This document shows, one piece after another, positions 29,921 to 46,897 of a DNA stretch of 64,000 nt. How positions within the stretch are numbered: position 1 is the stretch's first letter; the number at the start of each line of letters is the position of its first letter. The stretch is from Escherichia coli (GTDB lineage Bacteria; Pseudomonadota; Gammaproteobacteria; Enterobacterales; Enterobacteriaceae). The notes under the pieces are model-generated. The model searched no databases. It saw only the letters and a program-made list of their open reading frames with translations, and was not told the DNA's origin. The stretch is taken from the NCBI RefSeq assembly GCF_965641715.1, contig NZ_OZ282453.1; one strand, 5' to 3'. The position numbers and the translations under genes were made by a program.

Positions 29921-29995
29921 AGTGAAATTTCACAAAGATCAGGATAAAAGCCACCGGCCATAGACCGGTGGCTTTGCATCAATTCAGGAGAGGTT

Positions 29996-31132: not shown

Positions 31133-31318
31133 AAAAATCCCCATAAAAAACAACAGAGAGATACAGGTTTCCGACGGACAACGCTGCGGTGCTTTACTTT
31201 GATGGGGTCATTATAGTGAGCAGAATTAGTGCTGATTAGGGGGCGATTAATGCTAAGATTAATACCATATTGTTATAAATTAATGCGAAGATTGCCGGCA
31301 TGAAGGGGGGATGTTTCA

Positions 31319-32203
31319 ATGGCGAAAAGGGAGAACTACAACGAGCTGTACCTGTTTATGCAGGTGGTTCGAGAAGGCAGCTTTACCGCAGCGGCTCAGC
31401 GGCTGGGTCTTGCTCAGTCAGGAGTCAGCCGTTCTGTTCGCGAGCTTGAAGAAAGGCTGGGTGTCCAGCTGCTAGTGCGCACCACGCGTAAACTGTCGCT
31501 GACACAAGCAGGCGAGCAGCTCTACCAGAAGACGGCATCTGGATTTGAAATGTTAGATCTTGGGCTTGCCACACTGGCGCACTATCGAGAGACGCCCTCC
31601 GGCACGGTGCGTATCAATGCCAGCCAGCACGCGATTGATAAATGCCTGCTGCCAAAGCTGGCGGTATTTAAACAGCGATATCCTGATATCCGGCTTGAAC
31701 TGATAAATGAGAGCCGGTTCGTCGATATCATCGAGGAAAGATTCGATGCAGGTGTCCGCCTGGGGCCTGAAGTCGGCCAGGGTATGGTCGCGGTACGCAT
31801 CACGCCCGATATGGAGATGGCAATTGTGGGGACTCCGGAACATTTTCGTCGCTATGGTTTTCCGCAAACTCCGGCGGATTTAAAGGCGCATCCCTGTATC
31901 GCCTATCAGTTTGCCGACGGCAGCGTATACCAGTGGGAACTCAATCAGGATGATAAAAAAATCACTCATCGCCCTGAAGGGCAATGGGCCCTATCCGACA
32001 GCTATATGGAAGCAGAAGCCGCCCGGCTGGGCCTCGGATTGGCCTATGTTCCTGTTGAACTGGTCGCGGATGATTTAGAACACGGTAAGCTTATCAGGGT
32101 GTTGCAGCGTTACAGCCTGCGAATGGAGGGATTGTTTCTCTATTACCCTCATCGCAACGTCTCCCCCGCTCTGCGGATGGTCATTGATACATTGAAAATC
32201 TGA
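31319..32203 (+). CDS. LysR-family transcriptional regulator
   Basis: 294 aa; HTH FTAAAQRLGLAQSGVSRSVR; divergent from the hydrolase/MFS genes. Confidence 0.75.
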   Translation: MAKRENYNELYLFMQVVREGSFTAAAQRLGLAQSGVSRSVRELEERLGVQLLVRTTRKLSLTQAGEQLYQKTASGFEMLDLGLATLAHYRETPSGTVRINASQHAIDKCLLPKLAVFKQRYPDIRLELINESRFVDIIEERFDAGVRLGPEVGQGMVAVRITPDMEMAIVGTPEHFRRYGFPQTPADLKAHPCIAYQFADGSVYQWELNQDDKKITHRPEGQWALSDSYMEAEAARLGLGLAYVPVELVADDLEHGKLIRVLQRYSLRMEGLFLYYPHRNVSPALRMVIDTLKI

Positions 32204-32440
32204 ACGTTAACAACGACCGACTCTTCACTGTGCAATATTGTGTCAGGTAGTCACTCTGCGTTCAATTCCAGGGGCCGCTTTGAGCGAGAAAGAGCGGACT
32301 TATCTGTACAAGGGGACTATCCAGCAATGGAGATCACCCAAAAGAAAAAACTACCTGGCTCCCTCAACAACCTTCATCCGGGAATTTAGCCTCAATCAAC
32401 ATTTTTATATCTGTCAGGTTACTTCATTATGAAAACCGAT

Positions 32441-32705
32441 CAATATCGTTGTTTTTGTTGCAATAGTAGAATACGCGTATTTATTCCTCCATTTCTATTA
32501 ATAACGGCCATAAACTGTTCATTTCACTGATATTTAAAATATGCATCCTTTTCAAGCTGTTCAGCGGCGTAAGAAAACGTATTAAATATGAATTCGACGA
32601 TTTAACCATTTCTGTCTGATTGGTAATCATCTGTGATTAATGCTGGTCTATTGATTACGCCAGCATTAACCGCTTAGGGATGTATTCTTCCTGTTGATAT
32701 ACAGC
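32441..32705 (+). repeat. Degenerate second copy of the ykgR-rpmE2-rpmJ2 locus with the central ~680 bp missing
   Basis: 32441-32546 aligns to 13099-13215 (ykgR 3' end plus downstream); 32550-32705 aligns to 13896-14046 (rpmJ2 last codons plus downstream flank); about 80-85 percent identity by eye. Confidence 0.6.
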
Positions 32706-32903
32706 CTCGAAAAAGAGAGAAAATAAAACTGTGTCCAATATTACTTTACTACTCCAGACCGAAGCATCGGTAGAATTAGCAGAACGACTGGTACAGAAGG
32801 TGGGTATAGCGTCATTTGTCAGGTATTCCATTGCCTGACAAATGACAATTTTGAGTCAATAGACGTGCTTCTTGATCATGTCTTAAAAATTATACCATGA
32901 GCC

Positions 32904-33134
32904 TTATGAAGCATTATTTTTACTGACTGGTGTTAACTTTGCTATCATATAAACTCTGTTCTTAAAAAACGCGCCCAGAATTTTATATGATTTCCCTTGT
33001 TTTTCTGCCTGTAAAGAAATTTCTTTTTCAGTGCTGTTAATGGTTGAACCGACGGCAGTAATCGTTTTGGCGACGCTACTGAATGATAATAAAGACAGTG
33101 CAACCACAACAATTAAAGAACAGATAGTATTCAC
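32904..33134 (-). CDS. Small secreted protein, DUF1471 (BhsA/YdgH/McbA-like) family candidate
   Basis: GTG start 7 nt after an AGGAG Shine-Dalgarno; signal peptide; C-terminal AEKQGKSYKILG resembles the DUF1471 signature. Confidence 0.45.
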   Translation of the reverse strand: MNTICSLIVVVALSLLSFSSVAKTITAVGSTINSTEKEISLQAEKQGKSYKILGAFFKNRVYMIAKLTPVSKNNAS

Positions 33135-33347
33135 GCTAATTCTCCTGACAATTGAGAGGATGAGTTTTATATATAAAGGCATTAAACATGAGTCATGTTT
33201 ACTTCCTGTGAAAATAATCTTTCTGTAATTAAACCCTCATCTCCTTCGGGGTGAGCAATACATAATGCATCTTGCTATGAAAAACACAGGGATATATAAA
33301 TCTTCCTTCTGACCTATTTAATAAAACGTGAATGTAAAAATTATTCT

Positions 33348-34070
33348 TCAGTTTGCAGATGCAGTGGGTCTGATGGTAATTTCGGTTGTATCAACGCTTT
33401 CGGGAGATTCAATAATATGCCTTACCGCACGGGCAATATCCGCAGGTTGAAGTGCAACAGAACGGTAGGCGTCCATTGCCTTCATGGTTTCCACATGGGT
33501 AATGGTTGAAGCCAGTTCACTTTCGACAACGCCAGGATTTACGCAGGTCACACGGATTTTCGAGCTTTCCTGCCGTAAGCCATCAGAAATAGCCCGTACT
33601 GCAAATTTGGATGCACAATAGACTGCGCCTGTGGGCACAACAGAAAGGGCACCAATAGAACCAAGATTGATTATCTGACCGGAACCCTGTGCTTCCATCA
33701 CCGGAAGTACAGCGCCAATTCCCCACAGTACACCTTTGATATTCACGTCAATAGTGAGCTCCCATTCATCCTGTTTTCCTGCTGCAAGCGGTGAAAGCGG
33801 CATAACGCCCGCATTATTGATAAGAACATCAACTCGCCCCCAGCTATCCAGCGCTACTTGCACGAAATCTGCCATGGACTGTCGGTCTGTGACATCCAAC
33901 TCCCGAGCTTTAGCAATTCCTCCTGCGCGGCAAATTTCGGTTGCAATGGCTTCGATACGCTCAACTCTGCGTGCTCCCAGTAAAGTCTTTGCACCTGTCG
34001 TTCCCAGCTCTCTGGCAATACCTTCCCCAATACCACTTGATGCGCCGGTGATTAATATGACCTTATCCAT
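33348..34070 (-). CDS. Short-chain dehydrogenase/reductase (SDR)
   Basis: TGASSGIG Rossmann motif and catalytic YxxxK (YCASK). Confidence 0.75.
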   Translation of the reverse strand: MDKVILITGASSGIGEGIARELGTTGAKTLLGARRVERIEAIATEICRAGGIAKARELDVTDRQSMADFVQVALDSWGRVDVLINNAGVMPLSPLAAGKQDEWELTIDVNIKGVLWGIGAVLPVMEAQGSGQIINLGSIGALSVVPTGAVYCASKFAVRAISDGLRQESSKIRVTCVNPGVVESELASTITHVETMKAMDAYRSVALQPADIARAVRHIIESPESVDTTEITIRPTASAN

Positions 34071-34168
34071 TACGTTCTCCTTCAAATGTGTTCGGAGAGA
34101 GAATAGAACTTTATGATTGGTTCCAGTATCCTGCTTTCAATGTACTCAGTGGTTAGCGGCATTAAACA

Positions 34169-35193: not shown

Positions 35194-35211
35194 ATGGTGC
35201 CGATAATAGGA
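35194..35211. repeat. attL: 18-bp direct repeat (atggtgccgataatagga) identical to the thrW 3' end at 46821-46838
   Basis: Exact match read directly; marks the island boundary distal to the integrase. Confidence 0.7.
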
Positions 35212-35391
35212 ATAAAATAAAACAATAACATACTGAAAAATATACAAAAAAGAAACACACCGTTAAGTAATGCCCCCGAAAATGCCCCCATAATAGATGC
35301 CGCAGTAAGTCGACTTGTCCCAAGGACTGGTAAGTAATGTCAATAGCGGGAACAAAGAGACATTACTTACCGAGAATGGAATCCATTTAGG

Positions 35392-36621
35392 TTATGCTGG
35401 CCAATCCCACTGCTGATAGGCAGAGAATAGGCGCGTGAGCTCAGCAGGCGCAAGAATATCAACAATATTAGCTCTGTAGCTATGCGATTTACCTAATGGA
35501 ACATTTTCGAAATGATTAGCTTGATAAGGATTAAAATCGTGAAGCTCACCTAATGTTGAGATATCGGTATTAATAGTTTTAAGCCAAGAAACAAGAATTA
35601 CTTTTGCCCCTGTTCTCTGTATGTAAGCTCTTGCCGATTCAAAACTATAGCCTCGAGTTGTTATATCATCTATAAGAAGTACTGTTTTACCAGGGCCTAA
35701 AGGTGGTTTTTTATAGGTAGTTCTAGGATTTCTGTGTGGCTGAGAATTAAGACAAATTGTATTAAGTTGATTGCAATGGTCAATTGCAACTCCCTCATTT
35801 CTTGCTTTTTGAGATTTTTTGGAAGTCGTATGCCTTAAAATAAGATCTGGGATATACGTCTTGCGAAAACATTTTCCAAATATTGAAATCGCTTCATCCA
35901 TGATATTATTCCCATATCCTTGCTTATGCCCTGGATAAACACTAACATAATTAATCATCTTATGAATGCCACTAAAATAGAGACTGGATATTAAGGCACT
36001 CGTCCAAAATTCAGGATGGCCTAATCCATGTTTAGCAGCAGCACGAGCATCTTCAGAGTAAAGAGTATACTCTTCCTTCATGGTGCTGAAAGGAGCAAGT
36101 GCATAGAAATTAAAATCACCATCGTGAATTTCATGACACCAAAGATGCTCTCTTAAACAGAAGGTATCTATAAATCTAGCAATATCTTTAGGGGTTGAAA
36201 ACTCGAAACCATAATCTGTTTTGTCTGCCCACCATGTAGCTCTTAAAAAGAGCAACTCACCATTAACTGCTGTTTGCATGTCGTTTATCGAAGCACCAAT
36301 GTACAAAGTTTCTGTACTTTCCCAACCCATCAAATCAAGGACATATTTTGTAGCATCCGCAGTTGGCTTCCCTGGAATGCTCTTATCTTTCGCTCGACAA
36401 AGATATTTAAATTCTCCCCAATGCTTTTGTAACACATCCTCTAAAGGGGTTCTTTCATCTCCGACAACCCAACCCCTGTTAGTGAATACAACAAACTCGA
36501 TCTTTTTAGTTCTGAAATATCTAATTAATTTATCTACCTCTGCAAAGATTTCGCTATCGATCTTTCCCTTAGGCACAAGAATATCTTCAACACTAAGAAT
36601 CACACCCTTAATTTTGCTCAT
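35392..36621 (-). CDS. Protein with C-terminal phosphoribosyltransferase (PRTase) domain; ShosT-like candidate effector
   Basis: 409 aa; PRPP-binding motif VLLIDDITTRGYSF near the C-terminus; N-terminal ~250 aa unassigned; AT-rich; 11 bp downstream of the DprA-like gene. Confidence 0.65.
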   Translation of the reverse strand: MSKIKGVILSVEDILVPKGKIDSEIFAEVDKLIRYFRTKKIEFVVFTNRGWVVGDERTPLEDVLQKHWGEFKYLCRAKDKSIPGKPTADATKYVLDLMGWESTETLYIGASINDMQTAVNGELLFLRATWWADKTDYGFEFSTPKDIARFIDTFCLREHLWCHEIHDGDFNFYALAPFSTMKEEYTLYSEDARAAAKHGLGHPEFWTSALISSLYFSGIHKMINYVSVYPGHKQGYGNNIMDEAISIFGKCFRKTYIPDLILRHTTSKKSQKARNEGVAIDHCNQLNTICLNSQPHRNPRTTYKKPPLGPGKTVLLIDDITTRGYSFESARAYIQRTGAKVILVSWLKTINTDISTLGELHDFNPYQANHFENVPLGKSHSYRANIVDILAPAELTRLFSAYQQWDWPA

Positions 36622-36631
36622 TTCATCTTCC

Positions 36632-37612
36632 TTAGAGATCTAAGCTCTGCTGTATCGGCTGTGCTTTTAAATCATGATTATTATTCAAAATATAATTACT
36701 CATCTCATTCAATTCAAAAGGCATTAAAAAAGATAAAGAATTTCTATTTTCTTCAGCAAACTTCAATTCTGGTCTACTTTCATACGTAGTAGGAAGATAT
36801 GGACTCGCTATCTTTTTTGCATACTTAAAAGCATAATCAACAGTATGTGATGTTCCACTTTTAATATTCCATTCGACTGGTATTAGTGAATCACATAAAG
36901 CAGCCTGGATTCTGTTACGCCTTACAAAATTTTCTGCGCTATATGTTTGTTCAGGTAGATACTCGGTAACGATAGCCCCACCATTAGAAACTATTGCTCG
37001 ATATAACTCTTTAGAACCTTTCGGATACTCGACAAAAATCCCATTACCCAATACCGCAATAGTTGGAATGCCATATCTCAGCGATTCATAATGACAACAT
37101 TGATCTATTCCTGTCGCCAAACCACTGACTGTTGAAACATCTTTAGAATATAGAGAAGAAACAATCAGTTTTACTAGAAAAATACCATCATCCGTTGGCT
37201 TTCGTGTCCCCACAATTGCAACAGATTTCTTATTAAGAAGTTCATAATTACCATGAACAAAAATCCAAAATGGCGGATCGCTTATGTTCTTTAATGATTG
37301 AGGAAATGTAGCCTGATCATAAAAGGTGAGCACAATACCATTTTTATTGAGTTCACGAGCTCTCTCCAGTCCCTTAGACCAAAGGTCTTGTTGAAATGTT
37401 TCCCAAGATATATTTTTAGGCAAGGAAACTCTTAGATATCCTGCCAAGGCATCAGCTGTATTATCTTTTAATATATTCTTAAATCCAATTTTGGATTGAT
37501 AGATTTTGCGAAGCGTCCAGTAACCAACCCCCTTTAGACAAGTTAAGGCAAGAAACGCAATAATTTCATTTTTCCAAAACTCTCTAACTTCAGTGTAATC
37601 TTTATATTCCAT
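36632..37612 (-). CDS. DprA/Smf-like (SLOG-superfamily Rossmann) protein; ShosA-like candidate
   Basis: DprA signature region (VAIVGTRKPT ... SGLATGIDQCCH ... TIAVLGNGIFVEYP ... FVRRNRIQAAL); start set at the internal Met MEYKDY. Confidence 0.65.
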   Translation of the reverse strand: MEYKDYTEVREFWKNEIIAFLALTCLKGVGYWTLRKIYQSKIGFKNILKDNTADALAGYLRVSLPKNISWETFQQDLWSKGLERARELNKNGIVLTFYDQATFPQSLKNISDPPFWIFVHGNYELLNKKSVAIVGTRKPTDDGIFLVKLIVSSLYSKDVSTVSGLATGIDQCCHYESLRYGIPTIAVLGNGIFVEYPKGSKELYRAIVSNGGAIVTEYLPEQTYSAENFVRRNRIQAALCDSLIPVEWNIKSGTSHTVDYAFKYAKKIASPYLPTTYESRPELKFAEENRNSLSFLMPFELNEMSNYILNNNHDLKAQPIQQSLDL

Positions 37613-38027
37613 TTTACGTTTGCCTTTTAGATTACAACCCGTACTCAACACAAAAAATTTAGAAAATTGTTGCCAAAAGCATATTATAAATAGCATCTTA
37701 CCGCAGATTTGTGAAGCAACAACATCCCTAGGAGAAACCTTAACCTAGCGGGACAACTTACTGACCAATCCTCAGCTAGCTCATTGAATTGCCCCCATAT
37801 CGCACAGCCCCGCACGCCTGCCCGCTTCGCTTAACAGACTGGTTTTCATGCACCTCATAAATCGTCTCAGAAGCCACCAAACAAGGGCTTTCTCGTCAAA
37901 AATGGTGCATAAGACTCATGCGTTTTCATGCGCCATAGACATGCACTCATGCGCTCTCAGGCCAGCCAGGGAAAAGGTGTTAAAAATCCCGGTACTCGAC
38001 CGGGATTACGTAGGCGTTTTTTTCTAA

Positions 38028-38300
38028 TCAGACAGGAATCTGCTGACGGCTTGACAGTTTTGACGCGGAGCCATAGCGATTGAGCGTTTGCTGTTGTTTT
38101 ACCGGGGTTTGTGATTTGTCTGGTTCCTGTTCATTGCGCCGGGGTTTCATGATTATCTTATCCACACTCTCCAGTGCCGTAAATGTGCAGGAACATTCCA
38201 GATTCTGGCACTGATACCACGAGCGTTTAACTGACGGAGCTTCATAGGCTGCTGTTCTGGCGTGTGCAACTGTACCGCATTCCGGACATTTAAGTGCCAT
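38028..38300 (-). CDS. Ogr/Delta-family zinc-finger late-gene activator
   Basis: CPECG...(H)...YQCQNLECSCTF zinc-finger spacing as in P2 Ogr / P4 Delta. Confidence 0.75.
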   Translation of the reverse strand: MALKCPECGTVAHARTAAYEAPSVKRSWYQCQNLECSCTFTALESVDKIIMKPRRNEQEPDKSQTPVKQQQTLNRYGSASKLSSRQQIPV

Positions 38301-38305
38301 TAATA

Positions 38306-38857
38306 TCACTCCTGTATATCGTTAATGTCATTCAGGCGTTGCTGAAAACGCAGATGTTGTGCCGGGGTGTAAGAGCCCTGGCAATCACGAATCATACTGG
38401 GGTCAGGCATCAAACCGGATTCATCCAGGATCTCACGATAATCCCCGGCAATTTCAGGCGGTGTTATTGCCAGCTGGCGAACCAGAGCACTGCGTAATAT
38501 ACGGGACGCAACGTCAACCCCTCCGCGCCCCTTCAGGAACGGAGCCAGTGCAGATGTCAGGGCTGCCCCATTCGCCTGCATAAAATTGCTGAGAGCGGCT
38601 TCTGTGCAGGCCTCCATCAGTAAATGCTGCGAGTAAATGCATTCGCGCGCAGCACAGTTAATTTGCCATTTCAGCACATCCAGACGTTCCCGCAGGAATT
38701 CGAGCTGTCGGGCATAATCTGCTGGTTTTTCTGTGGCAGCGAGGAGAGATGTTATCTGTTGTTCAACGGCTTTTCGGCTCTCACTATGTCTGGCCCACAG
38801 AATACGGGCATTCCGAAAACTGGTAAGTACCTGGTCAGGTGTGCCTCGGGCCGTCAT
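38306..38857 (-). CDS. Psu-like (polarity suppression / capsid decoration) protein
   Basis: 183 aa; resembles my recollection of P4 Psu (LKWQINCAAR ... FMQANGAALTSALAPFL); overlaps neighbours by 4 bp. Confidence 0.55.
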   Translation of the reverse strand: MTARGTPDQVLTSFRNARILWARHSESRKAVEQQITSLLAATEKPADYARQLEFLRERLDVLKWQINCAARECIYSQHLLMEACTEAALSNFMQANGAALTSALAPFLKGRGGVDVASRILRSALVRQLAITPPEIAGDYREILDESGLMPDPSMIRDCQGSYTPAQHLRFQQRLNDINDIQE

Positions 38858-39597
38858 ACTGCTTTCTCCTTCTCAGCAAGTTCCTGACGAACCTTTATTT
38901 TATGCATAGCTGCTGGAGAGAGTTGATTACTGAAATCCAGACGCGCCGCATAATCCGGGGCAACTCCCGCCAGTTTAAACACCGGGTCCTGTTCAGGCAT
39001 CGCATCGTTAGCCAGAGCCGGTCTGGTGATATGTTTATGAATAAAGTCTTTCAGCACTGTGTCCGGGTCATTAACTGAATTCACCACACCCACAACGGCA
39101 CTGGCTTCCCGGCCCATTGTGGATTTAAGCAGGCTCAGCGTCTGAATAAGCGCTTTTCCATGCGACTGCATAAAATCCTCCCAGATTTGTTTTGCGCGAA
39201 TATCCACAAGAATGTTATGCGCGTGGATATACTTTCCGGCTAATTCCGCAGCTTTCTGCGGCAAAAGTGCATTTTCGCTTTCCTGAGCCGCCAGCAGCTC
39301 ATCAAAATCCTCAAGCGTTTCTCGTCCCAGCGCAATTTCCGTGCGCAGTTTTTTCATTTCCTTTGAGACCACGCCCTGACTTTCACGAAACAGCGTGCGC
39401 CACTCCTCATTCAGTGTATTCGTCGTGGATTCCATTTCAGCGCGACGCTGGCGGATTGTCGCAATATTATCCGCTGCCGCTTTCTGCTGACGACGTGCTT
39501 CAAGCCATGCGTTTCTGGCTGTGTTCATGGTTTCCAGTGCCCGCTGCGTTACAGCCGGAAAAGTGGAAAGGTTGTTATTCACTGCGGTGTTGTTCAT
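38854..39597 (-). CDS. Sid-like (capsid size determination) protein candidate
   Basis: 247 aa; Psu/Sid-fold-like segment; position upstream of psu-like. Confidence 0.45.
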   Translation of the reverse strand: MNNTAVNNNLSTFPAVTQRALETMNTARNAWLEARRQQKAAADNIATIRQRRAEMESTTNTLNEEWRTLFRESQGVVSKEMKKLRTEIALGRETLEDFDELLAAQESENALLPQKAAELAGKYIHAHNILVDIRAKQIWEDFMQSHGKALIQTLSLLKSTMGREASAVVGVVNSVNDPDTVLKDFIHKHITRPALANDAMPEQDPVFKLAGVAPDYAARLDFSNQLSPAAMHKIKVRQELAEKEKAV

Positions 39598-39776
39598 GAC
39601 TTCTCCTGTCGGGTTGGTTCGTTACGTCAATTGTGTCGTGGCTGACACAAGCACACTATCGGTGCTCAGTGTGTGGTGGCTGGCACAACGGGCGCTTGCG
39701 GTTATTCAGACGTGGCTATGAAAGCCAGCCAGATAAAAATGCCCACTGTTTCAGTCTGCTTTATGTCCCTGATGCG

Positions 39777-39964
39777 GTGGAACAGGTGAAACATGTGTTA
39801 CAGCTTTGTTTTATAAATCATTTATATACACTGCACCGGTGGAACATCGCGGGTAACAAGGTGGAACAGCGGATTGGCTGGCGTTACATCTGTTCCACCT
39901 CACTATTTCAGAAGGTGGAACAGGTTCAGCCCCTGTAAAATACGGTTGTTCCACCTGTTTCACC
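39777..39964. repeat. Iteron cluster: at least 8 copies of GGTGGAACA / TGTTCCACC (and GGTGAAACA variants) in both orientations; candidate replication region
   Basis: Copies at 39777, 39785, 39838, 39860, 39891, 39914, 39947, 39956; similar to the P4 type-I iteron TGTTCACC; immediately 3' of the alpha gene. Confidence 0.55.
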
Positions 39965-39998
39965 TGTTACCCTTAATAAATAAGACTCACGCAAAGCC

Positions 39999-42671
39999 TT
40001 AACCCGGCACCTCGCTGTTGAAGACATAGAGCCTGCGGGGATTCATCTCTGGCGGGCGAATGGTTGTCTGGAGTTTGCCATCAGTGGAGGGCAGCAGGTA
40101 TCCACGATCTGCGCACAGACGCGCCACCTTGCGCGGGTCAAATCCCCTGCAGATTTCTTTCCAGCCGGACGGCATGACATAAAACGTAGTGACAGCTTCC
40201 GTGCCCTGCGCGGTACTGCCTTTCTCCACCCTGCGCCAGCCCACCATATTGGCGGGGCGGTTGCGCTCGTCATACCAGTCTGCAAAGCGGCTGTACTGAT
40301 TCGCGGTAAAGAAACTGCGAACCTGCTCCAGTGCGGCGATATCTTCCTGATTGGCGGTGTGCCCGCGCTCTTTCAGCCATGCGTTCAGGCAGACGCGGGT
40401 TGCCCGCAATGCTTCACCCTCAGGCCAGCCGGTGATACCCTGACGGGTTGCCAGTTCACCTGCCATCGCCACCAGTGCAAAGCGGTTCACAGCCCGGCCC
40501 ACCTGATTGCCTGCATCTTTCGGAGTCAGGGCGGCAGCATATTCCTTCATCAGCGATTTTGCCTGTGCCGTTAGTCCGTTAAGATCAGCGGTCAGTGCTT
40601 TCAGCCACTCCCGGAACGGCGAACCGTAGTAGCAGGACGTGGCCCATTCAAGATGCTCTGCCAGAGCCTTGCCGCTGTCGAAGCCGTGCAGCTCCTCAAA
40701 AACGCCAAACTTCCCGGAATCGCTGGGGATCTGGATCATCCTGACTTCCATCCCGGCAAAAGTACGCTCACCGGCCTTTGCCGCATGTTCGGTCAGAGAT
40801 AACTCGCCAGTTGAAAAGAACAACAGGCGCCACTGCTTACGGGTACGCAGTTCACCGTCCGTACCGGCACGACCCTTGCCCTGACCGTTTGCCAGCATGT
40901 AGGCGATATTGCCTGCCTCGCGTCCGTCAACTTCCCGGATCTCATCAAGCATCATGGCGGCATCGTTGCGGCGGCTGGCACATCCCTCCAGCGCGTTGCC
41001 GGTGGCCCGCCATGTCTGCCAGTAGTCAGGCCCGCCGCAGACGGAGGTTGCCGCTTTCATGGTGGTGGTCTTACCGTCTGTCGATTCCCCTTTGAGGTGG
41101 TAGCCGCCGCCGTCCATACCAACCAGCCGTAACAGTGGTGCAGCAAAGGCCAGGCTGACAGCAAATGCCACGCGGGAGTTGCCGGTACAGTAGCGGGATA
41201 CGTTCTCCCGCCATTCCTCTGTTGTGCCCGACACGCGGAAATCACGCCCCTGCACGGAAGTGGTCTGGAGAATGACACCCTCTGCACCTTCACCGCTGAC
41301 CTCATCCTGCAGGACGTAAACCTGACCATGCCAGCCAGTACGGCTGACGCAGGTCACGCGACGTTCCGGTTTACACAGTGAGATATATTCCATCAGGCGT
41401 GCGCGTGCCTCACCGGTGGTGCTGATATAAGACAGCCCGTTAACAAGCAGTACCCGGCGCAGTTCCTCACCACTGCCGCTCAGCATTTCCATCGGCATCG
41501 CCCAGCGGCGACGCTCACCCCACGTATCTTCCCATTCCAGCAGTCGTCCGAAGTTACCGCCATCGGCATCGCAGGTGATTGCCGTCACGCGCAGCGGGCT
41601 GCATATTTTGACGTTCTGGATCTCCGTCTCACCGTTGCGCTGTACCTGCTTTTCATACCAGAGATATTCCTGGGTAAGACGGAACCCGTGCGGCAGTTGC
41701 GTGCGGCCTTCCCCGCACAGTACCAGACCGTTGCGAAAGGCTTCACGGGCACGGGTAATACCGTGCTCCCGATGAAAGTCATTCCAGTCAGCCTTAATCT
41801 CTCCTGGTGGCAGCGTCATCCAGCCGCCAACAGCTTTTGCCGCCCGTTCAGCAAAGGCTCTGCCGGGATTCTCCCCCCCGTCCTGAAAATCGTTATCACC
41901 GGCGATGATAATTTTTACCTCAGGCCAGCGTGCCCGCAGCGACTGCGCCACATTGGGCAGGTTGCCCGCAGATATGGCAGCCACTACGCATCCGGCAGTG
42001 AGCTGGCTTACCGTCAGCGCCGTAGCGTAACCTTCGGTAATCACCACCTGTACCGGTGGTTCAGACGGTAACGGGCTGAGCGACACAAACGCGCCTTTCA
42101 TCGTGCTGCCGGGCAGTATGCTTTTTTCACCCGTCGGGGCGATAAGCTGTGCACCGGTCACGGCTCCGGTGTTGGTCGTGAGTGGTAACAGCAGGGAACC
42201 AGCAGGAAAATCCTTACCGCTGATATGCTGCACGCTTCCGGTCAGAGAGGCCGGGTATCCGGCGAACCCTTTTCCTGCCAGATAGGCACTTTCTCCCGTG
42301 TGGCTCTCTTTCATCAGCGTCGCCACGGTAAGGCTCATGTCGCGTTTAGGGGCTTTTTGTCTGGCAGGCTTAACAGGCAGTTCCTGCACATCCGGCACAT
42401 TAAGCACCTGCGCCACCTGCTGCGCAGCCTTTCTGACGTTGTAGCCGGTTACGAGCTTAACCAGATCCAGACCGTCACCATTGCCACACTGGCTGCAGAT
42501 CCACGTCCCGCGCCCGTCAAGGTCATCGAGGCGAAAACGATCCTTGCCCCCACATTTCGGGCAGGGACCGTGCCTGCCGTTTTCAGGTACATCAATACGC
42601 AGCATATGCAGAATAACGGGCCATTTCCCCCGCGCGGCGGCTGAAATCTGCGTAACCGTCTGTATTGTCAT
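39999..42671 (-). CDS. P4 alpha-like primase/helicase
   Basis: 890 aa; N-terminal zinc-binding CPKCGG...CSQCG; Walker A GESTDGKTT. Confidence 0.8.
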   Translation of the reverse strand: MTIQTVTQISAAARGKWPVILHMLRIDVPENGRHGPCPKCGGKDRFRLDDLDGRGTWICSQCGNGDGLDLVKLVTGYNVRKAAQQVAQVLNVPDVQELPVKPARQKAPKRDMSLTVATLMKESHTGESAYLAGKGFAGYPASLTGSVQHISGKDFPAGSLLLPLTTNTGAVTGAQLIAPTGEKSILPGSTMKGAFVSLSPLPSEPPVQVVITEGYATALTVSQLTAGCVVAAISAGNLPNVAQSLRARWPEVKIIIAGDNDFQDGGENPGRAFAERAAKAVGGWMTLPPGEIKADWNDFHREHGITRAREAFRNGLVLCGEGRTQLPHGFRLTQEYLWYEKQVQRNGETEIQNVKICSPLRVTAITCDADGGNFGRLLEWEDTWGERRRWAMPMEMLSGSGEELRRVLLVNGLSYISTTGEARARLMEYISLCKPERRVTCVSRTGWHGQVYVLQDEVSGEGAEGVILQTTSVQGRDFRVSGTTEEWRENVSRYCTGNSRVAFAVSLAFAAPLLRLVGMDGGGYHLKGESTDGKTTTMKAATSVCGGPDYWQTWRATGNALEGCASRRNDAAMMLDEIREVDGREAGNIAYMLANGQGKGRAGTDGELRTRKQWRLLFFSTGELSLTEHAAKAGERTFAGMEVRMIQIPSDSGKFGVFEELHGFDSGKALAEHLEWATSCYYGSPFREWLKALTADLNGLTAQAKSLMKEYAAALTPKDAGNQVGRAVNRFALVAMAGELATRQGITGWPEGEALRATRVCLNAWLKERGHTANQEDIAALEQVRSFFTANQYSRFADWYDERNRPANMVGWRRVEKGSTAQGTEAVTTFYVMPSGWKEICRGFDPRKVARLCADRGYLLPSTDGKLQTTIRPPEMNPRRLYVFNSEVPG

Positions 42672-43051
42672 ACTTCCCCCTGATACAACGTCACACCAGT
42701 ACTGCAGAAGTCATCAAAGGTCGCCGGAAGCGTGCGGTACATCTCCGCCATTACTTCACAGCCGCGCGCGGTCAGTACCGGCGGCGCGGTCAGCAGTGAC
42801 GGCTCCAGCATGTCAGTCAGCAGTGCCAGCGCGGCAGCGGCGCCCTGTGCTTCGCCGTACTCGTTAATCAGTGCGCACTCGATATGCAGCGCAATGGCCA
42901 TTTCAATACGCTCCACCGTCAGGCTGTGCGGACCATACTGATCACTGCCAGTTTCGTTCAGCATTTTCTGCCGCCATGCTGAAGCAATAGCCCGCCGGTA
43001 AAGCGCGGTTGTCATTTCTGCCGGGAAAATGGAAACCTGCGGCTGGTTCAT
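42668..43051 (-). CDS. Hypothetical protein, satellite left operon
   Basis: 127-aa ORF; 4-bp overlap with the alpha start and the upstream ORF. Confidence 0.4.
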   Translation of the reverse strand: MNQPQVSIFPAEMTTALYRRAIASAWRQKMLNETGSDQYGPHSLTVERIEMAIALHIECALINEYGEAQGAAAALALLTDMLEPSLLTAPPVLTARGCEVMAEMYRTLPATFDDFCSTGVTLYQGEV

Positions 43052-43332
43052 CTGGCACCTCCTTCAATCAGTGCACAGCTGTGCGCAATATCCGTCAAAT
43101 CTGCCCGCAGGTACTCCATCAGCGCGGCGACACCATGCGCACAGCCAGCGTCCAGTGCTCCGGCCTGAGACGGGTATTCAGAAAAGAGAAGCTGGAGCAT
43201 GTCGCAGGCATTTCTTGCGCGGGTCAGCTTTCCGAAACTGTCCTCTGACAACCCATAGGCAAAAGCACCGGTATTGTGTTTTTCAGGCAAAGTGTGGCCC
43301 TGAGCACCGTTGTGCCCGTTTGAAATATTCAT
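43048..43332 (-). CDS. Hypothetical protein, satellite left operon (epsilon-position)
   Basis: 94-aa ORF in an overlapping gene train. Confidence 0.4.
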   Translation of the reverse strand: MNISNGHNGAQGHTLPEKHNTGAFAYGLSEDSFGKLTRARNACDMLQLLFSEYPSQAGALDAGCAHGVAALMEYLRADLTDIAHSCALIEGGAR

Positions 43333-43363
43333 CGTGGATTACTCCGTTTTCAGCGGTATTTTG

Positions 43364-43723
43364 TCAGAGAAACTTTGAATAGTGACCGTCGTCAGGCTCA
43401 GCAGAACGCCGTATGCTACGCTCCCGCCAGCGGATAAATAGCACAGACGGATGCAGTGTCAGCGGGCCGGAACCACTACCGCCTGCAGGAGCTGGTGCAG
43501 GCTTAAAGAGCGGTACATCAAACAGGCGCGTATACCGCTGTTCAAACCATGCCAGAGGGCAGGAAGAAAGCTGGTTGTCGCTGTCATGACGTATCAGCAC
43601 TTCACAGCTGAATTCAGGATTAACCAGCGCCACAGAGGGCGAGGCTTCAATTAATCGGATAATCGTGACCGTCCAGCCACGTTCATGCTGCCAGCGTTCG
43701 CCGGGGTGCGGATAATTACGCAT
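43364..43723 (-). CDS. Hypothetical protein, satellite left operon
   Basis: 119 aa from the internal Met MRNYPHPGERW; ATG overlaps the stop of the upstream small ORF. Confidence 0.4.
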   Translation of the reverse strand: MRNYPHPGERWQHERGWTVTIIRLIEASPSVALVNPEFSCEVLIRHDSDNQLSSCPLAWFEQRYTRLFDVPLFKPAPAPAGGSGSGPLTLHPSVLFIRWRERSIRRSAEPDDGHYSKFL

Positions 43724-43892
43724 GTTCACCTCCGCAGGGAATGCGCCCGGCAAAGCTCAGTACATAATCCGGGGCAAGTCTTCGCCGCGCTGACCGCTCG
43801 TTATCTGCGGTGATCCTTAACATCACAGGACGGGCATTGCGTTGACTGCGGTTGATCGCCGCAAATAACCAGGTACACTTCTGTTTAGCCAT
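43716..43892 (-). CDS. Small basic protein (58 aa), first gene of the left operon
   Basis: ATG with AAGAGG Shine-Dalgarno 8 nt upstream; MAKQKCTWLFAAINRSQRNARPVMLRI...; not in the ORF track. Confidence 0.3.
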   Translation of the reverse strand: MAKQKCTWLFAAINRSQRNARPVMLRITADNERSARRRLAPDYVLSFAGRIPCGGEHA

Positions 43893-43983
43893 CTTCGTTA
43901 CCTCTTATAACGGTTGGTTAAATGCCCGATTTGTGTTCCCGCACAATCGGGCATTGCTTTTACAAGCGAACTATACTTACAAT

Positions 43984-44023
43984 GGTAATTACCATGTAGT
44001 CATCATATTCCAGGGTAATTACC
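43984..44023. promoter_or_regulatory. Two copies of the perfect 10-bp palindrome GGTAATTACC (43984-43993 and 44014-44023); candidate operators
   Basis: Read directly; between the divergent left operon and the RHH ORF. Confidence 0.4.
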
Positions 44024-44197
44024 ATGTCAACACCACAAGAGAAACGTTCCCCACCATTCCAAATGCGTCTTACCGACGATTTTAGGTTGCAACTCGAAAA
44101 AGAAATGCGCAAAGATGGAGATAGCGCGTTGGCAACTTGGATTAAAAGAATTTTACGTAAAGAACTACAATCACGCGGGATTGACCCTAAAGGTTAA
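44024..44197 (+). CDS. Ribbon-helix-helix (Arc/MetJ-like) candidate repressor, 57 aa
   Basis: MSTPQEKRSPPFQMRLTDDFRLQLEKEMRKDGDSALATWIKRILRKELQSRGIDPKG; beta-strand plus two helices pattern; not in the ORF track. Confidence 0.45.
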   Translation: MSTPQEKRSPPFQMRLTDDFRLQLEKEMRKDGDSALATWIKRILRKELQSRGIDPKG

Positions 44198-44229
44198 TCA
44201 GTTAAATATTACTAACTATCAATTAAGGC

Positions 44230-44520
44230 TTAGGGAGTAGGTGATAATCTATTCCCTTTATTAATTGCTCTTGCCTTATTTCTCATCCCCTCAAACTGTT
44301 GACCTGAGTTTTCTTCAAACCCATCTCGCCACTTATAATAATCAGCAGCGCGCCATCGGGACATCCGACCTATTTTTATAGGTTTTGGAAAGCGATTCAG
44401 AGAAATCAATCGATAAATCCATTTGTCACTTAATAAACAATCGGAAGTAATAAACTTCATATCGATCAGAGAATCCATTGAAGGTCGTTGCAAAGTAGTA
44501 TTATCATGTTTAGATAACAT
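44230..44520 (-). CDS. alpA: AlpA-family prophage regulatory protein
   Basis: Motif IYRLISLNRFPKPIKIGRMSRWRAADYYKW typical of AlpA; true start may be an internal Met. Confidence 0.65.
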   Translation of the reverse strand: MLSKHDNTTLQRPSMDSLIDMKFITSDCLLSDKWIYRLISLNRFPKPIKIGRMSRWRAADYYKWRDGFEENSGQQFEGMRNKARAINKGNRLSPTP

Positions 44521-44645
44521 TCATCATTCTCCGTTTATCTAAGTCTATTGGCTTCAACACGGAAAATTAAAACATAGGTTATAAATGAGAAAAATGTGAC
44601 TAATGAAAAAAATCCAAAATCATTAGTCACAATAATTGTTAACAT

Positions 44646-45470
44646 TTAGTTAAACTTAATGTTTTTCATGCAACTACGTAGCAAGCTAACAACAGTATCA
44701 TAGCTCAAAGGTGGTTCTCCGGTCTTAGGCCAGAACTCACTGGCATGTTGAAAAAGATAATCAGCTATCGCTGCTGGACTCTCTCTTCTTAGCCTCATAT
44801 CACGATGATAGAGCGAAATAATAGCCATGAGTATTTCAGTTCGAGGAACAGCATGTTTTTGTTTTTGCGCCTCAGATTGTGATTTATATTTATTGGCGTT
44901 TTTTATCCGTTTTTGTTCGCATAAGACTATATCAATGAATTTTTGAATCTGTACCTTTGTAATCCACAAAACCTCAAAAAGATAATAATTTTCTTTTTCA
45001 TCATAATTTACATAAAGAATTACCTTACAATTTATATTAGGCGTACCCGCCAGTAGAAAATGAATAGGCCAGGAATCCGGTTGCCCCTCATGCTTAACTA
45101 ACAGATCTTTATATTCATAATCAACAGCCCATAAACCGGATATAAAGCATCGAATAAAACCATTTTTATCAATTAAATTATTTTCATCAGGGATTCTTAT
45201 AGAGCTTAAGTCTGACAACATAATATTGCCATTTCTATCTCGTGGTAAATATTTCAGATTAGATAAGAACTCATCCAGTTGACCATCAATCTTCAAACCA
45301 CATGAAACATCATACTCATCATCATGGAATTCCATGCATAGCTCTACATCTCGTTCTCTGGCAAACCAGAGTATATCCTTTTCACTACAACCAATTTTTT
45401 CTGAAGCTTCATCCAACTGGTAGTAATCTCTGAGCAGAGAATCAGTATTATTAATTTTTAAAATATTCAT
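44646..45470 (-). CDS. Hypothetical protein (274 aa), AT-rich island cargo
   Basis: Long ORF; start overlaps the integrase stop by 4 bp; no motif recognised. Confidence 0.5.
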   Translation of the reverse strand: MNILKINNTDSLLRDYYQLDEASEKIGCSEKDILWFARERDVELCMEFHDDEYDVSCGLKIDGQLDEFLSNLKYLPRDRNGNIMLSDLSSIRIPDENNLIDKNGFIRCFISGLWAVDYEYKDLLVKHEGQPDSWPIHFLLAGTPNINCKVILYVNYDEKENYYLFEVLWITKVQIQKFIDIVLCEQKRIKNANKYKSQSEAQKQKHAVPRTEILMAIISLYHRDMRLRRESPAAIADYLFQHASEFWPKTGEPPLSYDTVVSLLRSCMKNIKFN

Positions 45471-46657
45471 TTATGAGTACCAATTAGCTCAGATAAATAA
45501 TTAGCATACCATTGCATCATTTCTCTTCTCCCTTCGAGATATTGGGCATGGTTATAAATTCCACGAATAGAGTTTTTGTCCGAATGAGCAAGCTGGGTTT
45601 CAATCCAAGCGCTGTTAAATCCTTTCTCATGTAGAATTGTACTCATCGTATGCCTGAAACCATGTCCCGTAACACGCCCTGCATATCCAATACGTTTAAA
45701 CACCTGATTGATGCTTGCTTCACTCATAAATTTGCTAGGATCGTTGCGTCCAGGGAACATCAGCGGGTAGTTCCCAGTTAGTTCTTTCAAACTTTTGAGA
45801 TGGGATAATGCTTGTTTTGGTAACGGGACAATATGGCTCCTACGCATTTTCATACGTTCTTTTGGGATCTCCCACACCGCATTATCAAAATCCACCTCTC
45901 GCCACTCACCTGCTCGTAGTTCTCCAGTTCGTAGACCTGTCAGGATAAGTAAATGCGCCCCCAACAATACAATTGGACTTCCTGAATAAGAATTAAGGGC
46001 ATTAAAGAACTCCGGTAGTTCGTTGGCTTTGAGGAATGGATAGTGGACTGCTTCATGTCCTTGCATCGCACTGGCAAGATCCGGTGCCGGATTGTAGATT
46101 GCCCTACCCGTTACGATGGCATAGCGAAAAACTTCACCGCATCGCTGACGGACTTTCTTCGCTTTCTCCATAGCGCCTCGAGCTTCTATCAACCTCAGAA
46201 CTTCAAGCAGTTCAAGGGGCTGAATATCAGCTATAGGTCTGTGCCCAATATGCGGAAAAATGTCTTTCTCAAATGCCTCAATGATGTCGGAAGCATAGCC
46301 CTCAGACCATTTGGATGATTTCATTTTGTGCCACTCTAACGCCACTTCTCTGAATGGGTTAAGTGTCTCAATCGCTGCGTTTAAAGCCTGCTTTTTGGCT
46401 TTTTTGACTTCGCCGGGATCTTCACCTGCTGCGAGTAGTTTCTTTGCGTCTTCTCGTTTTTGTCTGGCATCAGCAAGTGTGACTGTTGGATAAACACCAA
46501 AGGACAATCGTTTCTCTTTACCAGCAAAACGGTATTTCATACGCCAGTAACGCGAGCCATTAGGTTCGACCTGAAGGTATAGGCCACCTCCATCAAACAG
46601 CTTATAGCTCTTCTCTTTTCCTTTCGCAGCTTCAACCTTGCGGGCATTCAGCATCAT
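45467..46657 (-). CDS. int: Tyrosine integrase (P4-type), tRNA-adjacent
   Basis: N-terminal SYKLFDGGGLYLQVEPNGSRYWRMKYRF; C-terminal catalytic HxxR...Y (HGFRHT ... GIYNHAQYLEGR); ORF extends to 46726. Confidence 0.85.
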   Translation of the reverse strand: MMLNARKVEAAKGKEKSYKLFDGGGLYLQVEPNGSRYWRMKYRFAGKEKRLSFGVYPTVTLADARQKREDAKKLLAAGEDPGEVKKAKKQALNAAIETLNPFREVALEWHKMKSSKWSEGYASDIIEAFEKDIFPHIGHRPIADIQPLELLEVLRLIEARGAMEKAKKVRQRCGEVFRYAIVTGRAIYNPAPDLASAMQGHEAVHYPFLKANELPEFFNALNSYSGSPIVLLGAHLLILTGLRTGELRAGEWREVDFDNAVWEIPKERMKMRRSHIVPLPKQALSHLKSLKELTGNYPLMFPGRNDPSKFMSEASINQVFKRIGYAGRVTGHGFRHTMSTILHEKGFNSAWIETQLAHSDKNSIRGIYNHAQYLEGRREMMQWYANYLSELIGTHK

Positions 46658-46821
46658 TGGGGGCACATTTCCTAGACCGAACAGAACATGCCCCTGATTG
46701 TGCCCCCAACCGCGTGTTGATTTCAAGAGACAAGGGTTGACCTCAAACGTATGAAAACAACGTAATATATATGTTTTTAAATGATTTTGTTGATGTGGGT
46801 TGACTTGGGAAAACTAGGTGA

Positions 46822-46897
46822 TGGTGCCGATAATAGGAGTCGAACCTACGACCTTCGCATTACGAATGCGCTGCTCTACCAACTGAGCTATATCGGC
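46822..46897 (-). tRNA. thrW: tRNA-Thr (anticodon CGU)
   Basis: 76-nt cloverleaf GCCGATATAGCTCAGTTGGTAGAGCAGCGCATTCGTAATGCGAAGGTCGTAGGTTCGACTCCTATTATCGGCACCA on the minus strand; 3' end duplicated at attL. Confidence 0.9.

Follow-up and report, generated by a model that had tools for sequence, protein, structure and literature searches.

Within the window analysed here, a 64-kb stretch of Escherichia coli DNA, the 18-bp sequence ATGGTGCCGATAATAGGA occurs as two exact direct copies, at 35194-35211 and 46821-46838, with no extension of the match in either direction, and none of 100 dinucleotide-preserving shuffles of the window contained two such matches. An intact thrW gene encoding tRNA-Thr(CGU) lies at 46822-46897 on the minus strand (ARAGORN; Rfam tRNA, 71.8 bits), with proA and proB as its neighbours, as in K-12; the right-hand repeat copy therefore consists of the terminal 17 nt of the tRNA with its CCA, plus one downstream base. 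This copy represents the tRNA-proximal att core, and the copy at 35194-35211 the distal one. Candidate integrase arm-type sites are present at both ends. Beside the distal core, the motif ATGCCCCC occurs twice, 12 bp apart (35270-35289, plus strand); this pair, predicted to be bound by the integrase, is conserved in relatives with unrelated cargo. Near the int start, motif positions at 46659-46707 (plus strand) comprise GGGGGCA and the pair ATGCCCCT/TGCCCCC, which matches the pair at 35270-35289. Judged from these motifs, both groups may serve as arm-type sites.

An 818-bp empty-site query, made by joining the two flanks around one repeat copy, matched as one uninterrupted piece in the listed genomes (99.1-99.5% identity); in 948 of 5,426 complete E. 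coli genomes, a single place covers 80% or more of the query. The 18-bp repeat is present as a single copy in the empty-site genomes. Since the empty site is contiguous in other genomes, the segment between the repeats is a precise insertion, with a length of 11,627 bp when one att core copy is counted. A P4-type tyrosine integrase put the element into the 3' end of thrW, duplicating the 18-bp core. The first-pass annotation had claimed an exact 18-bp repeat of the tRNA-Thr 3' end, which is confirmed by the two copies and the shuffles, and had named as refuting evidence either absence of the repeat from empty-site genomes or collinearity of the int-to-repeat segment in strains that have no integrase at thrW; what those 948 genomes contain is a contiguous empty site. 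Its statement that K-12 carries a much larger element at this tRNA is also correct, as MG1655 has the 34.3-kb CP4-6 at thrW, bounded at both ends by the same 18-bp core. CP4-6 differs from the present element in its size, its many IS elements and the position of its integrase gene intF at the far end, and has no annotated Sid, Psu, Delta or cos.

The tyrosine integrase gene adjoins the tRNA (45467-46657, minus strand; 396 aa as annotated, ORF up to 46726; PHROG 1, NCBIfam PRK09692), and its product shares 43% identity with P4 Int (E 3e-112). Its stop is overlapped by 4 nt by the start of orf274 (44646-45470, minus strand), which encodes an unknown protein without a match in Pfam, PHROG or PADLOC. 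Homologs of orf274 adjoin int in Pantoea, Citrobacter and Erwinia; its AlphaFold model (pLDDT 81) gave no fold match in the PDB, and the AFDB matches were all uncharacterised proteins. An alpA-like excisionase/regulator gene follows (44230-44478, minus strand; 82 aa as annotated, ORF up to 44520), supported by PHROG 66 (E 1e-6), similarity to P4 ORF88 (E 4e-5) and the RefSeq product name 'AlpA family'.

A divergent gene for a 57-aa Arc/RHH-like regulator (44024-44197, plus strand) overlaps the left-operon promoter. The protein resembles the Arc-like repressors of PHROG 228 (E 0.002) and has no Pfam match, while relatives with 72-75% identity carry the NCBI name 'Arc family DNA-binding protein'; its sequence weakly suggests an RHH protein. 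The promoter region (43982-44030, minus strand; promoter and motif scans) contains the best promoter match in the element (11/12; TTGACA, 17 nt, TATGAT, from 44030 to 44002) and two palindromic candidate operators ATGGTAATTACCAT at 43982-43995 and 44012-44025, a motif with four matches (two palindromes, each on both strands) where 0.16 would be expected for the entire window. The 122-nt leader has a predicted fold of -35.9 kcal/mol (z = -3.8) with a strong hairpin at 43917-43950 (minus strand). On the opposite strand, this hairpin lies inside a symR-like Rfam match (43887-43958, plus strand), which is sub-threshold at 31.6 bits against a gathering cutoff of 61. The first gene of the operon encodes a 58-aa Icd-like protein (43716-43892, minus strand; NCBIfam phage_ICD_like, 84 bits against a cutoff of 25) matching the C-terminal portion of the old P4 'cI ORF' with 54% identity. 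It is followed on the same strand by orf119 (43364-43723; PHROG 30862), weakly homologous to P4 ORF151 (24% identity over 88 aa, pairwise E 8e-4), by orf94 (43048-43332; PHROG 14861, unknown function), which has no similarity to P4 epsilon, and by a gene for a 127-aa DUF5375 protein (42668-43051; PHROG 5991), a homolog of P4 ORF106 (40% identity, E 8e-17) that overlaps the primase start. No epsilon homolog and no CI/C4 or IsrK RNA was found in the element, and the same search detects both RNAs in P4 and Sakai Sp2. Because these RNAs were not found here though detectable in P4, the helper derepression and immunity circuits of P4 are not simply transferable to this element.

The 890-aa primase-helicase (39999-42671, minus strand; PHROG 1139, E 1e-183) combines the Pfam domains Zn_Ribbon_Prim, Toprim_3 and DUF927. 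Residues 6-316 share 38% identity with residues 5-311 of P4 alpha, whereas the helicase part beyond residue ~316 is DUF927, without similarity to P4 alpha; the 'alpha-type' label previously given to this gene thus holds for the Zn-ribbon and Toprim portion and fails for the helicase. Between alpha and sid lies an origin-like iteron cluster with an AT-rich core (39776-39964), identified by motif scan, in which GGTGRAACA, resembling the P4 type I iteron TGTTCACC, occurs eight times in both orientations. All eight window matches fall inside this interval, against 1.08 expected by chance window-wide.

The late module starts with a Psid-like promoter region (39632-39687, minus strand) carrying two TGT-N12-ACA boxes (39632-39649 and 39670-39687) 38 bp apart. 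The proximal box stops 35 nt short of the sid ATG, and P4 shows identical geometry (boxes at 9493-9510 and 9531-9548, sid at 9583). The three late genes, all on the minus strand, are sid (38854-39597; 247 aa, a capsid size determination homolog; PHROG 6165, E 7e-93), psu (38306-38857; 183 aa, polarity suppression/capsid decoration; PHROG 6366, E 2e-69) and delta (38028-38300; 90 aa, a single-domain Ogr/Delta zinc-finger activator; NCBIfam PRK09678, RefSeq). Their products are related to P4 Sid (24% identity over 226 aa, E 7e-13), to P4 Psu (29% identity, E 2e-15) and to both halves of P4 Delta (E 5e-11 and 3e-8), respectively. A terminator-like hairpin read from the sequence after delta (37982-38007, minus strand) consists of AATCCCGG, a 7-nt loop, CCGGGATT and TTTT, and falls below the T-run rule of the terminator scan.

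Downstream, homology identifies a P2-family cos region (37800-37852, minus strand), consisting of TGCATGAAAACC, 22 nt and GGCGTGCGGGGCTGTGCGA. It is homologous to the interval between the replication genes and the portal gene of Fels-2/RE-2010-type P2-like phages and also to the P4 cos, and has the same spacing as, and 16/19 core bases in common with, the site beside the portal and terminase genes of an E. coli P2-family prophage. Its core is one base shorter than in P2 and P4, with five additional bases upstream; a P2-family prophage with precisely this variant was observed only once, and the variant is common to ~850 genomes. A flanking conserved block with repeated GCATGA motifs (37905-37960, minus strand) aligns with phage RE-2010 and related satellites. 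Among the ~850 satellite-bearing genomes, conservation ends exactly at cos. It starts again at the candidate arm-type sites beside the att core, and in other strains backbones that are ~98.6% identical carry either an S8 peptidase with an AAA ATPase or a SMEK protein with a DUF2326 protein in between. Elements that are otherwise near-identical differ in what they carry between cos and the att arm, which makes this segment a swap site. Its position matches the published hotspots of P2 and P4, where a variable cassette beside cos differs in its defence systems from one near-identical backbone to the next (Rousset et al. 2022, PMC9122126).

Here, the segment, noted previously as unspecified 'cargo', is occupied by two adjacent genes on the minus strand, shosT (35392-36621; 409 aa, phosphoribosyltransferase toxin; PADLOC ShosT, E 3e-94) and shosA (36632-37612, with the start as in RefSeq, giving 327 aa, ORF up to 37696; DprA-like antitoxin; PADLOC ShosA, E 3e-90), which refines the earlier description to a known ShosTA anti-phage toxin-antitoxin pair, predicted to be active. 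Both match the published pair at full length (PMC11961720, PMC12961424; PDB 8zva-8zvd, 9vzo, 9w2p): ShosT, over its full length, with 8zvb and 9w2p (E 2e-88), and ShosA with 9vzo and 8zva (E 2e-71). The genes are homologous rather than identical in sequence to the published ones, and this allele occurs in only 9 of 5,426 E. coli genomes. In the studied system, the PRTase/pyrophosphatase ShosT disrupts purine metabolism and the DprA-like ShosA counteracts it, the trigger being the shutoff of host protein synthesis by T7 Gp0.7 (PMC11961720, PMC12961424). A DprA + PRTase pair was also validated as protective against T7 and lambda in a P2-like phage hotspot (PMC9122126), whereas the present pair resides in a satellite hotspot.

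The element thus carries modules for replication and for late functions, together with a P2-family cos that is separated from the att arm by the ShosTA cassette. All genes listed in the first-pass annotation were found between the repeats, and its 'P4-like' designation is supported by homology to P4 Int, Sid, Psu, the Delta zinc finger, the alpha primase domain and ORF106; it applies to the components, and the layout, without epsilon and the CI/IsrK RNAs, is unlike that of P4. The cos site, Delta/Ogr boxes, candidate operators and candidate arm sites are features additional to that list. With P4 (NC_001609), the element shares an integrase family that targets the 3' end of a tRNA gene, the capsid proteins Sid and Psu, an activator of the Ogr/Delta type, Psid with two boxes, an iteron origin directly upstream of Psid, the Zn-ribbon/Toprim primase domain, an ORF106 homolog whose gene overlaps the start of the primase gene, a late operon followed by a P2-family cos, and an accessory region beside cos, and their genome sizes are close (11,624 bp in P4). 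In contrast, P4 is ordered att, alpha leftward to vis, ori, sid, delta, psu, cos, cargo and int, whereas the order here is int, orf274, alpA, left operon, alpha, ori, sid, psu, delta, cos, cargo and att, with nearly all genes on one strand and the late operon downstream of alpha in the same direction. Further differences from P4 are the single Delta domain (two in P4), the DUF927 helicase part, the lack of epsilon and of C4/CI or IsrK RNA, and the Arc-like gene at the early promoter. P4's own integration site is leuX rather than thrW, and no DNA-level similarity to P4 is detectable. Sakai Sp2 of E. coli O157:H7, annotated as a 'P4-like phage', occupies the same thrW locus and shares the sid-psu-delta order, the cos variant, the cargo hotspot after cos and ~91% DNA identity from delta to cos, but follows the canonical P4 layout, encodes a 777-aa primase of the P4 type, has C4 and IsrK RNAs and different cargo, and stands in tandem with the lambdoid Sp1. 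Taken together, we consider it about 85% probable that this locus holds a P4-like phage satellite, integrated, apparently intact and 11,627 bp long, with a helper-dependent cycle as proposed below.

It is unlikely, although conceivable, that the locus is instead a domesticated remnant, a defence island fixed at thrW that kept its satellite genes and lost packaging. The missing epsilon and CI RNA, the cos variant, the failure to find an excised form (the attP junction) among the viral contigs of IMG/VR, the decay of K-12 CP4-6 at the same site and a decayed derivative in strain SW070917, in which sid-psu-delta-ShosTA is fused to a lambdoid prophage fragment, would all fit such a history. However, 14/14 genes are full length with sizes equal to their RefSeq counterparts, the element is within 3 bp of P4 in size, and conservation extends to the Psid boxes, the iterons, cos and the arm sites, with the cos variant common to ~850 genomes and a P2-family prophage. 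Moreover, near-identical backbones with different cargos, together with the 948 empty-site genomes, imply ongoing movement, and the architecture is maintained across genera, Pantoea cypripedii having the same gene order.

A PICI-type island that gained a P4 late module and acts in a PICI-like mode is considerably less probable still. The co-orientation of int, alpA and primase beside a tRNA resembles Gram-negative PICIs, the helicase domain is unlike that of P4, and SatelliteFinder scores a typical P4-like element as a Type C PICI (PMC10085698); yet the left operon is P4-like (Icd-like region, ORF151-like gene, DUF5375/ORF106 and alpha primase domain), the element has Sid, Psu and Delta as well as a P2-type cos, and none of its ORFs matches a small terminase, packaging-redirecting or capsid morphogenesis family in PHROGs. 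That the repeat arose by chance in ordinary strain-specific chromosome, a reading favoured by its shortness alone, is ruled out by the precise empty-site allele, and the shuffles, its coincidence with a tRNA 3' end beside an integrase gene and the use of the same core by CP4-6 also speak against it.

For the intact P4-like satellite, anatomy and knowledge of P4 suggest the following cycle. In the resting state, the Arc/RHH-like protein would occupy the two operators and silence the left-operon promoter, keeping the replication genes off, while ShosTA, expressed from its own promoter, may guard the host against other phages by abortive infection. No helper phage was found in the 64-kb window; upon activity of a P2-family helper, an Ogr-type activator and the satellite Delta would bind the TGT-N12-ACA boxes and turn on the sid-psu-delta genes, the element would be excised by AlpA and Int, and the primase-helicase would replicate it from the iterons. 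Sid would then drive the helper capsid protein into small shells, which Psu would decorate, and the helper terminase would cut cos and package the 11.6-kb genome. The backbone also occurs in Pantoea and, with other cargos, in about 324 E. coli genomes, 324 being the number that contain the alpha-ori-sid junction. The element is an ordinary member of a common, catalogued satellite family with known cargo, whose layout and regulation are unlike those of P4.

The genes of the element follow the order int, alpA, alpha, sid, psu, delta, with int-alpA immediately followed by the replication operon and then, downstream of alpha and in the same orientation, by the late operon, whereas P4 runs from att through alpha (leftward to vis), ori, sid, delta, psu, cos and cargo to int. 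Among the seven components that define P4-like satellites (Moura de Sousa & Rocha; SatelliteFinder), int, Psu, Sid, Delta and AlpA were found and epsilon was not. The canonical order int, psu/delta/sid, alpA, epsilon, alpha is not seen in the element, and its own order is absent from the organisational variants presented by Moura de Sousa & Rocha (PMC8628076), according to whom P4-like satellites are present in >30% of Enterobacterales genomes. The alpha-ori-sid junction occurs in 324 E. coli genomes, ~6% of the complete ones, and Pantoea cypripedii shares the order gene for gene with a different cargo; on sequence grounds, the variant layout is a real lineage. Type C elements lacking epsilon and alpha have been described as a distinctive Escherichia subfamily (PMC10085698), which may be this same lineage. 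Eight RefSeq records, representing seven strains, contain this exact element at 99.7-99.9% identity.

Several early genes confirm what the first-pass annotation had read from the sequence. The tyrosine integrase next to the tRNA is 43% identical to P4 Int across 410 aa (E 3e-112), and the AlpA-like regulator gives matches that are weak yet consistent (PHROG 66, E 1e-6; P4 ORF88, E 4e-5; RefSeq 'AlpA family'). The start of orf274 (45470-44646, minus strand) overlaps the int stop by 4 nt, and the gene is translationally coupled to int. Its product has no Pfam, PHROG, PADLOC or P4 cII similarity; the AlphaFold model is confident (pLDDT 81) and finds no fold match in the PDB, that is, nothing similar among solved folds, while its 252 AFDB50 fold matches, all unnamed or uncharacterised, reach other gamma-proteobacteria. 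Sequence homologs of orf274 occur in Enterobacterales, the gene adjoins int in Pantoea too, and our own reading of the model suggests an N-terminal helix-turn-helix. The left operon was likewise recovered, comprising in order the Icd-like gene, orf119 (43723-43364, minus strand), orf94 (43332-43048, minus strand), the gene for a DUF5375 protein and that for the 890-aa primase-helicase. The Icd-like protein shares 54% identity with a portion of the old P4 'cI ORF', orf119 is weakly similar to P4 ORF151, and the DUF5375 protein is 40% identical to P4 ORF106.

The proposed alpha-type primase/helicase held for the primase part (residues 6-316, 38% identity to P4 alpha, E 3e-48) and not for the helicase part, which is DUF927. 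The protein carries Zn_Ribbon_Prim, Toprim_3 and DUF927 domains and resembles P4 alpha over the primase third only, its helicase and C-terminal parts being unrelated. The predicted iterons are present as eight copies of GGTGRAACA in both orientations at 39776-39964, the sole matches to this motif in the entire window, where chance alone would give 1.08. BLASTP aligns neither orf94 nor orf119 with P4 epsilon, and the PHROG matches of the other ORFs include no derepression protein.

The early control region differs from that of P4, and no P4-type RNAs were found. C4/CI RNA and IsrK-like leader RNA yield no Rfam match in the element, even at E <= 0.1, whereas the same tool detects both in P4 and in Sp2, the P4-like phage at thrW of O157:H7 Sakai. 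The best promoter in the element (TTGACA, 17 nt, TATGAT; 44030 to 44002) overlaps the start of a 57-aa gene at 44024-44197, which lies on the plus strand, opposite to the other early genes, and its -10 is flanked by two palindromes ATGGTAATTACCAT, 30 bp apart. This gene corresponds to the RHH regulator of the first-pass annotation, and its Arc/RHH-like fold is assigned from a weak PHROG match and the names of close relatives, with no Pfam match and no PDB sequence match. We infer that the left operon is repressed by a protein acting at its promoter. The left-operon leader, which contains a 14-bp hairpin at 43917-43950, folds unusually well (z = -3.8). A sub-threshold symR-like Rfam match (43887-43958, plus strand), antisense to the ribosome-binding site and start codon of the Icd-like gene, scored 31.6 bits where the gathering score is 61; it reflects the strong hairpin, and a SymR-like antisense RNA gene at the icd start is not claimed. 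Two Rfam matches above the gathering score that are unrelated to the satellite lie elsewhere in the window, namely IS009 (189.8 bits; 22484-22683, minus strand) and naRNA4 (74.1 bits; 63479-63556, minus strand).

In the late module, the three homologs named by the first-pass annotation were supported. Sid matches PHROG 6165 (E 7e-93) and is 24% identical to P4 Sid (E 7e-13); Psu matches PHROG 6366 (E 2e-69) and is 29% identical to P4 Psu; and the Ogr/Delta homolog is a single-domain Delta that matches both halves of P4 Delta and NCBIfam PRK09678. In Pantoea cypripedii (L010, 17199-19952), a single Psu-family gene replaces the separate sid and psu. At Psid, two TGT-N12-ACA boxes are spaced 38 bp apart and 35 nt separate the end of the proximal box from the sid ATG; the box geometry upstream of P4 sid is identical. 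A further TGT-N12-ACA box, TGTTGATTTCAAGAGACA at 46715-46732, precedes the annotated int start by ~60 nt and may be due to chance, as the window-wide count of this motif equals the chance expectation.

A direct search with up to 3 mismatches did not find the P2/P4 cohesive-end cos, and a local alignment with the cos junction of P4 gave a weak score; the cos of the element was found solely via homology to P2-like phages of the Fels-2/RE-2010 type. A block ~210 bp downstream of delta matches these phages, with weak E-values (0.04-6), in the region between their replication genes and portal gene, which alignment with P4 identifies as cos. The core reads TGCATGAAAACC, 22 nt, GGCGTGCGGGGCTGTGCGA from 37852 down to 37800; relative to P4 and RE-2010, there are five additional bases upstream and the core is one base shorter. 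This variant is common to ~850 E. coli genomes, including Sp2 of O157 Sakai, and a P2-family prophage in Z1323PEC0014 shows the same spacing and 16/19 core bases beside portal and terminase genes; it is therefore not private damage. These sequences indicate a P2-family cos site for a helper terminase, at which cleavage is predicted. Megablast with the cos region of the P2-family prophage returned one full match, and the one short cos-core match that was inspected sits in another satellite, so the number of helpers carrying the variant is uninformative. In the same prophage (L009, 3388-4700), a GTPase-domain protein and a hypothetical protein are encoded between the replication gene and cos, which is where P2 has its hotspot.

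Across hundreds of genomes, conservation of the backbone ends exactly at the cos core (37802-37805) and restarts only at a ATGCCCCC motif pair beside the distal att core; this pair has a counterpart close to the start of int, and both are candidate integrase arm sites. The cargo noted in the first-pass annotation lies in this swap site and can now be named, the genes being shosA (DprA-like) and shosT (PRTase), 10 nt apart. Both proteins give full-length matches, ShosT to PADLOC PDLC03012 (E 3e-94) and ShosT in the PDB (E 2e-88), and ShosA to PADLOC PDLC03961 (E 3e-90) and ShosA in the PDB (E 2e-71). By analogy, the pair would act in this host as a toxin neutralised by its antitoxin, with anti-phage activity. 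Sister elements with ~98.6% backbone identity carry an S8 peptidase and an AAA ATPase, or SMEK and a DUF2326 protein. A defence hotspot adjacent to cos was described by Rousset et al. (PMC9122126), who showed that a DprA-PRTase pair taken from the hotspot of a P2-like phage protects against T7 and lambda, and the ShosTA mechanism has since been published (PMC11961720); the cargo site of the element is this published hotspot. The present ShosTA allele is rare, occurring in 9 of 5,426 genomes, one of them a decayed hybrid with a lambdoid fragment. In that derivative (SW070917, thrW; L033), a lambdoid fragment encoding an integrase, a LexA-type repressor and Cro is joined to sid-psu-delta-cos-ShosTA, and the locus lacks the int-to-alpha part of the satellite itself. 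At the hotspot position of Pantoea cypripedii lies a gene for a 917-aa protein with an SMC_N match and fainter PHP_C and AAA_21 matches, possibly a defence gene.

It is possible that the element is a domesticated, immobile remnant, yet its genes are intact, its cis sites are conserved, its cargo turns over and its organisation is conserved across genera, all of which argue against this explanation. Operation as a phage-inducible chromosomal island (PICI) fails on two counts: the left operon is itself P4-like, and the PHROG matches of the ORFs include none of the PICI packaging or capsid-redirecting genes (small terminase, Ppi/Rpp, capsid morphogenesis). The comparisons with P4 were made pair by pair. 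Kinship at the DNA level was sought by sensitive blastn of 7.9 kb of the backbone against 50,697 phage records and rejected, the search returning short integrase-gene matches and one other (217 bp, 70% identity, Pasteurella phage Pmp8); kinship with P4 is thus visible at the protein level only. The Pmp8 match, the sole phage DNA match of the backbone beyond the short integrase-gene ones, falls on the 57-aa Arc-like gene, whose product is unusually conserved from one family to another, with at least 70% identity in Erwinia, Pantoea, Xenorhabdus, Photorhabdus, Gilliamella and Pasteurella. Base composition is mosaic: the cargo has a GC content of 37%, the late module 51%, the replication module 58% and the alpA-orf274 segment 35%.

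The boundaries of the satellite are those of a precise insertion. As the first-pass annotation had noted, an 18-bp direct repeat, ATGGTGCCGATAATAGGA, is exact; it occurs twice only in the window (35194-35211 and 46821-46838), and two copies appeared in 0 of 100 shuffles. The right-hand copy consists of the final 17 nt of tRNA-Thr(CGU) (46822-46897, minus strand) plus one base, and the tRNA gene is identified as thrW by its flanking genes, proA/proB on one side and the LysR gene yagP on the other, which are as in close relatives and K-12. The predicted empty site, assembled from the left flank, a single repeat copy and the right flank, was recovered as a single uninterrupted match of 99.1-99.5% identity in the genomes listed and was at least 80% covered at one place in 948 of 5,426 complete E. 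coli genomes. This empty-site result establishes an 11,627-bp insertion, counting one copy of the core, and excludes a chance origin of the repeat. The locus thus combines a repeat that is a tRNA 3' end, an integrase beside the tRNA and a precise empty-site allele, the features of a tRNA-targeting integrative element. A P4-like element at thrW is already annotated in the Sakai genome, and CP4-6 does occupy this site in K-12, as a 34.3-kb element bounded by the identical 18-bp core. The predicted attP junction of the excised element, AACTAGGTG-ATGGTGCCGATAATAGGA-ATAAAATAAAAC, had no exact match in IMG/VR, where an excised or packaged form was sought. Viral contigs encoding close Sid relatives were mostly prophage calls from isolate genomes, and the only one whose layout was read, a 9,965-bp metagenome contig (L029), has the canonical P4 layout. 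Outside the element, ~5.6 kb with four ORFs (397, 385, 294 and 245 aa; 28727-34085) separates paoD from an intact 299-aa yagP-type LysR gene; yagP is a truncated remnant directly after paoD in K-12 and LR-64-2, and O157 Sakai is similar to the window here, with an intact yagP, an oxidoreductase and a regulator.

By analogy with P4 and P2, the Arc-like protein would maintain the resting state, AlpA and Int would drive excision, and the primase-helicase would fire the iteron origin. Ogr and Delta would then activate Psid, Sid would redirect capsid size, Psu would decorate the capsid, and the helper terminase would cut at cos, while ShosTA might protect the host by abortive infection. The element is close to P4 in size (11,627 vs 11,624 bp), which fits such a mechanism and is compatible with packaging into small capsids.

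The thrW lineage could be a separate, uncharacterised P4-like branch with a different control circuit, a reading to which we assign a probability of roughly 0.4. In such a branch, the 57-aa Arc/RHH repressor, bound to two palindromic operators, could replace the CI-RNA immunity of P4, and a DUF927 helicase could replace the P4 helicase. Having no epsilon anti-repressor, the satellite could be unable to wake a resting helper and respond only to an active one through Ogr/Delta, and the position of the late operon downstream of the replication operon in the same direction could couple the two by read-through.

Both the hotspot and ShosTA are already published, and the one mildly interesting point is the variant layout and control circuit; together with the absent RNA immunity and absent epsilon, the layout is a modest lead for satellite specialists and no surprise. 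The main practical value lies in correct annotation, as RefSeq labels the genes singly ('hypothetical protein', 'septation initiation protein', 'DprA'), while taken together they form a satellite with a ShosTA cassette in its swap site. The locus offers a clean natural illustration of the published rule by which satellites of the P4 type swap defence systems beside cos, and the DprA-PRTase pair, first validated in a P2-like phage hotspot, also sits in a satellite hotspot.
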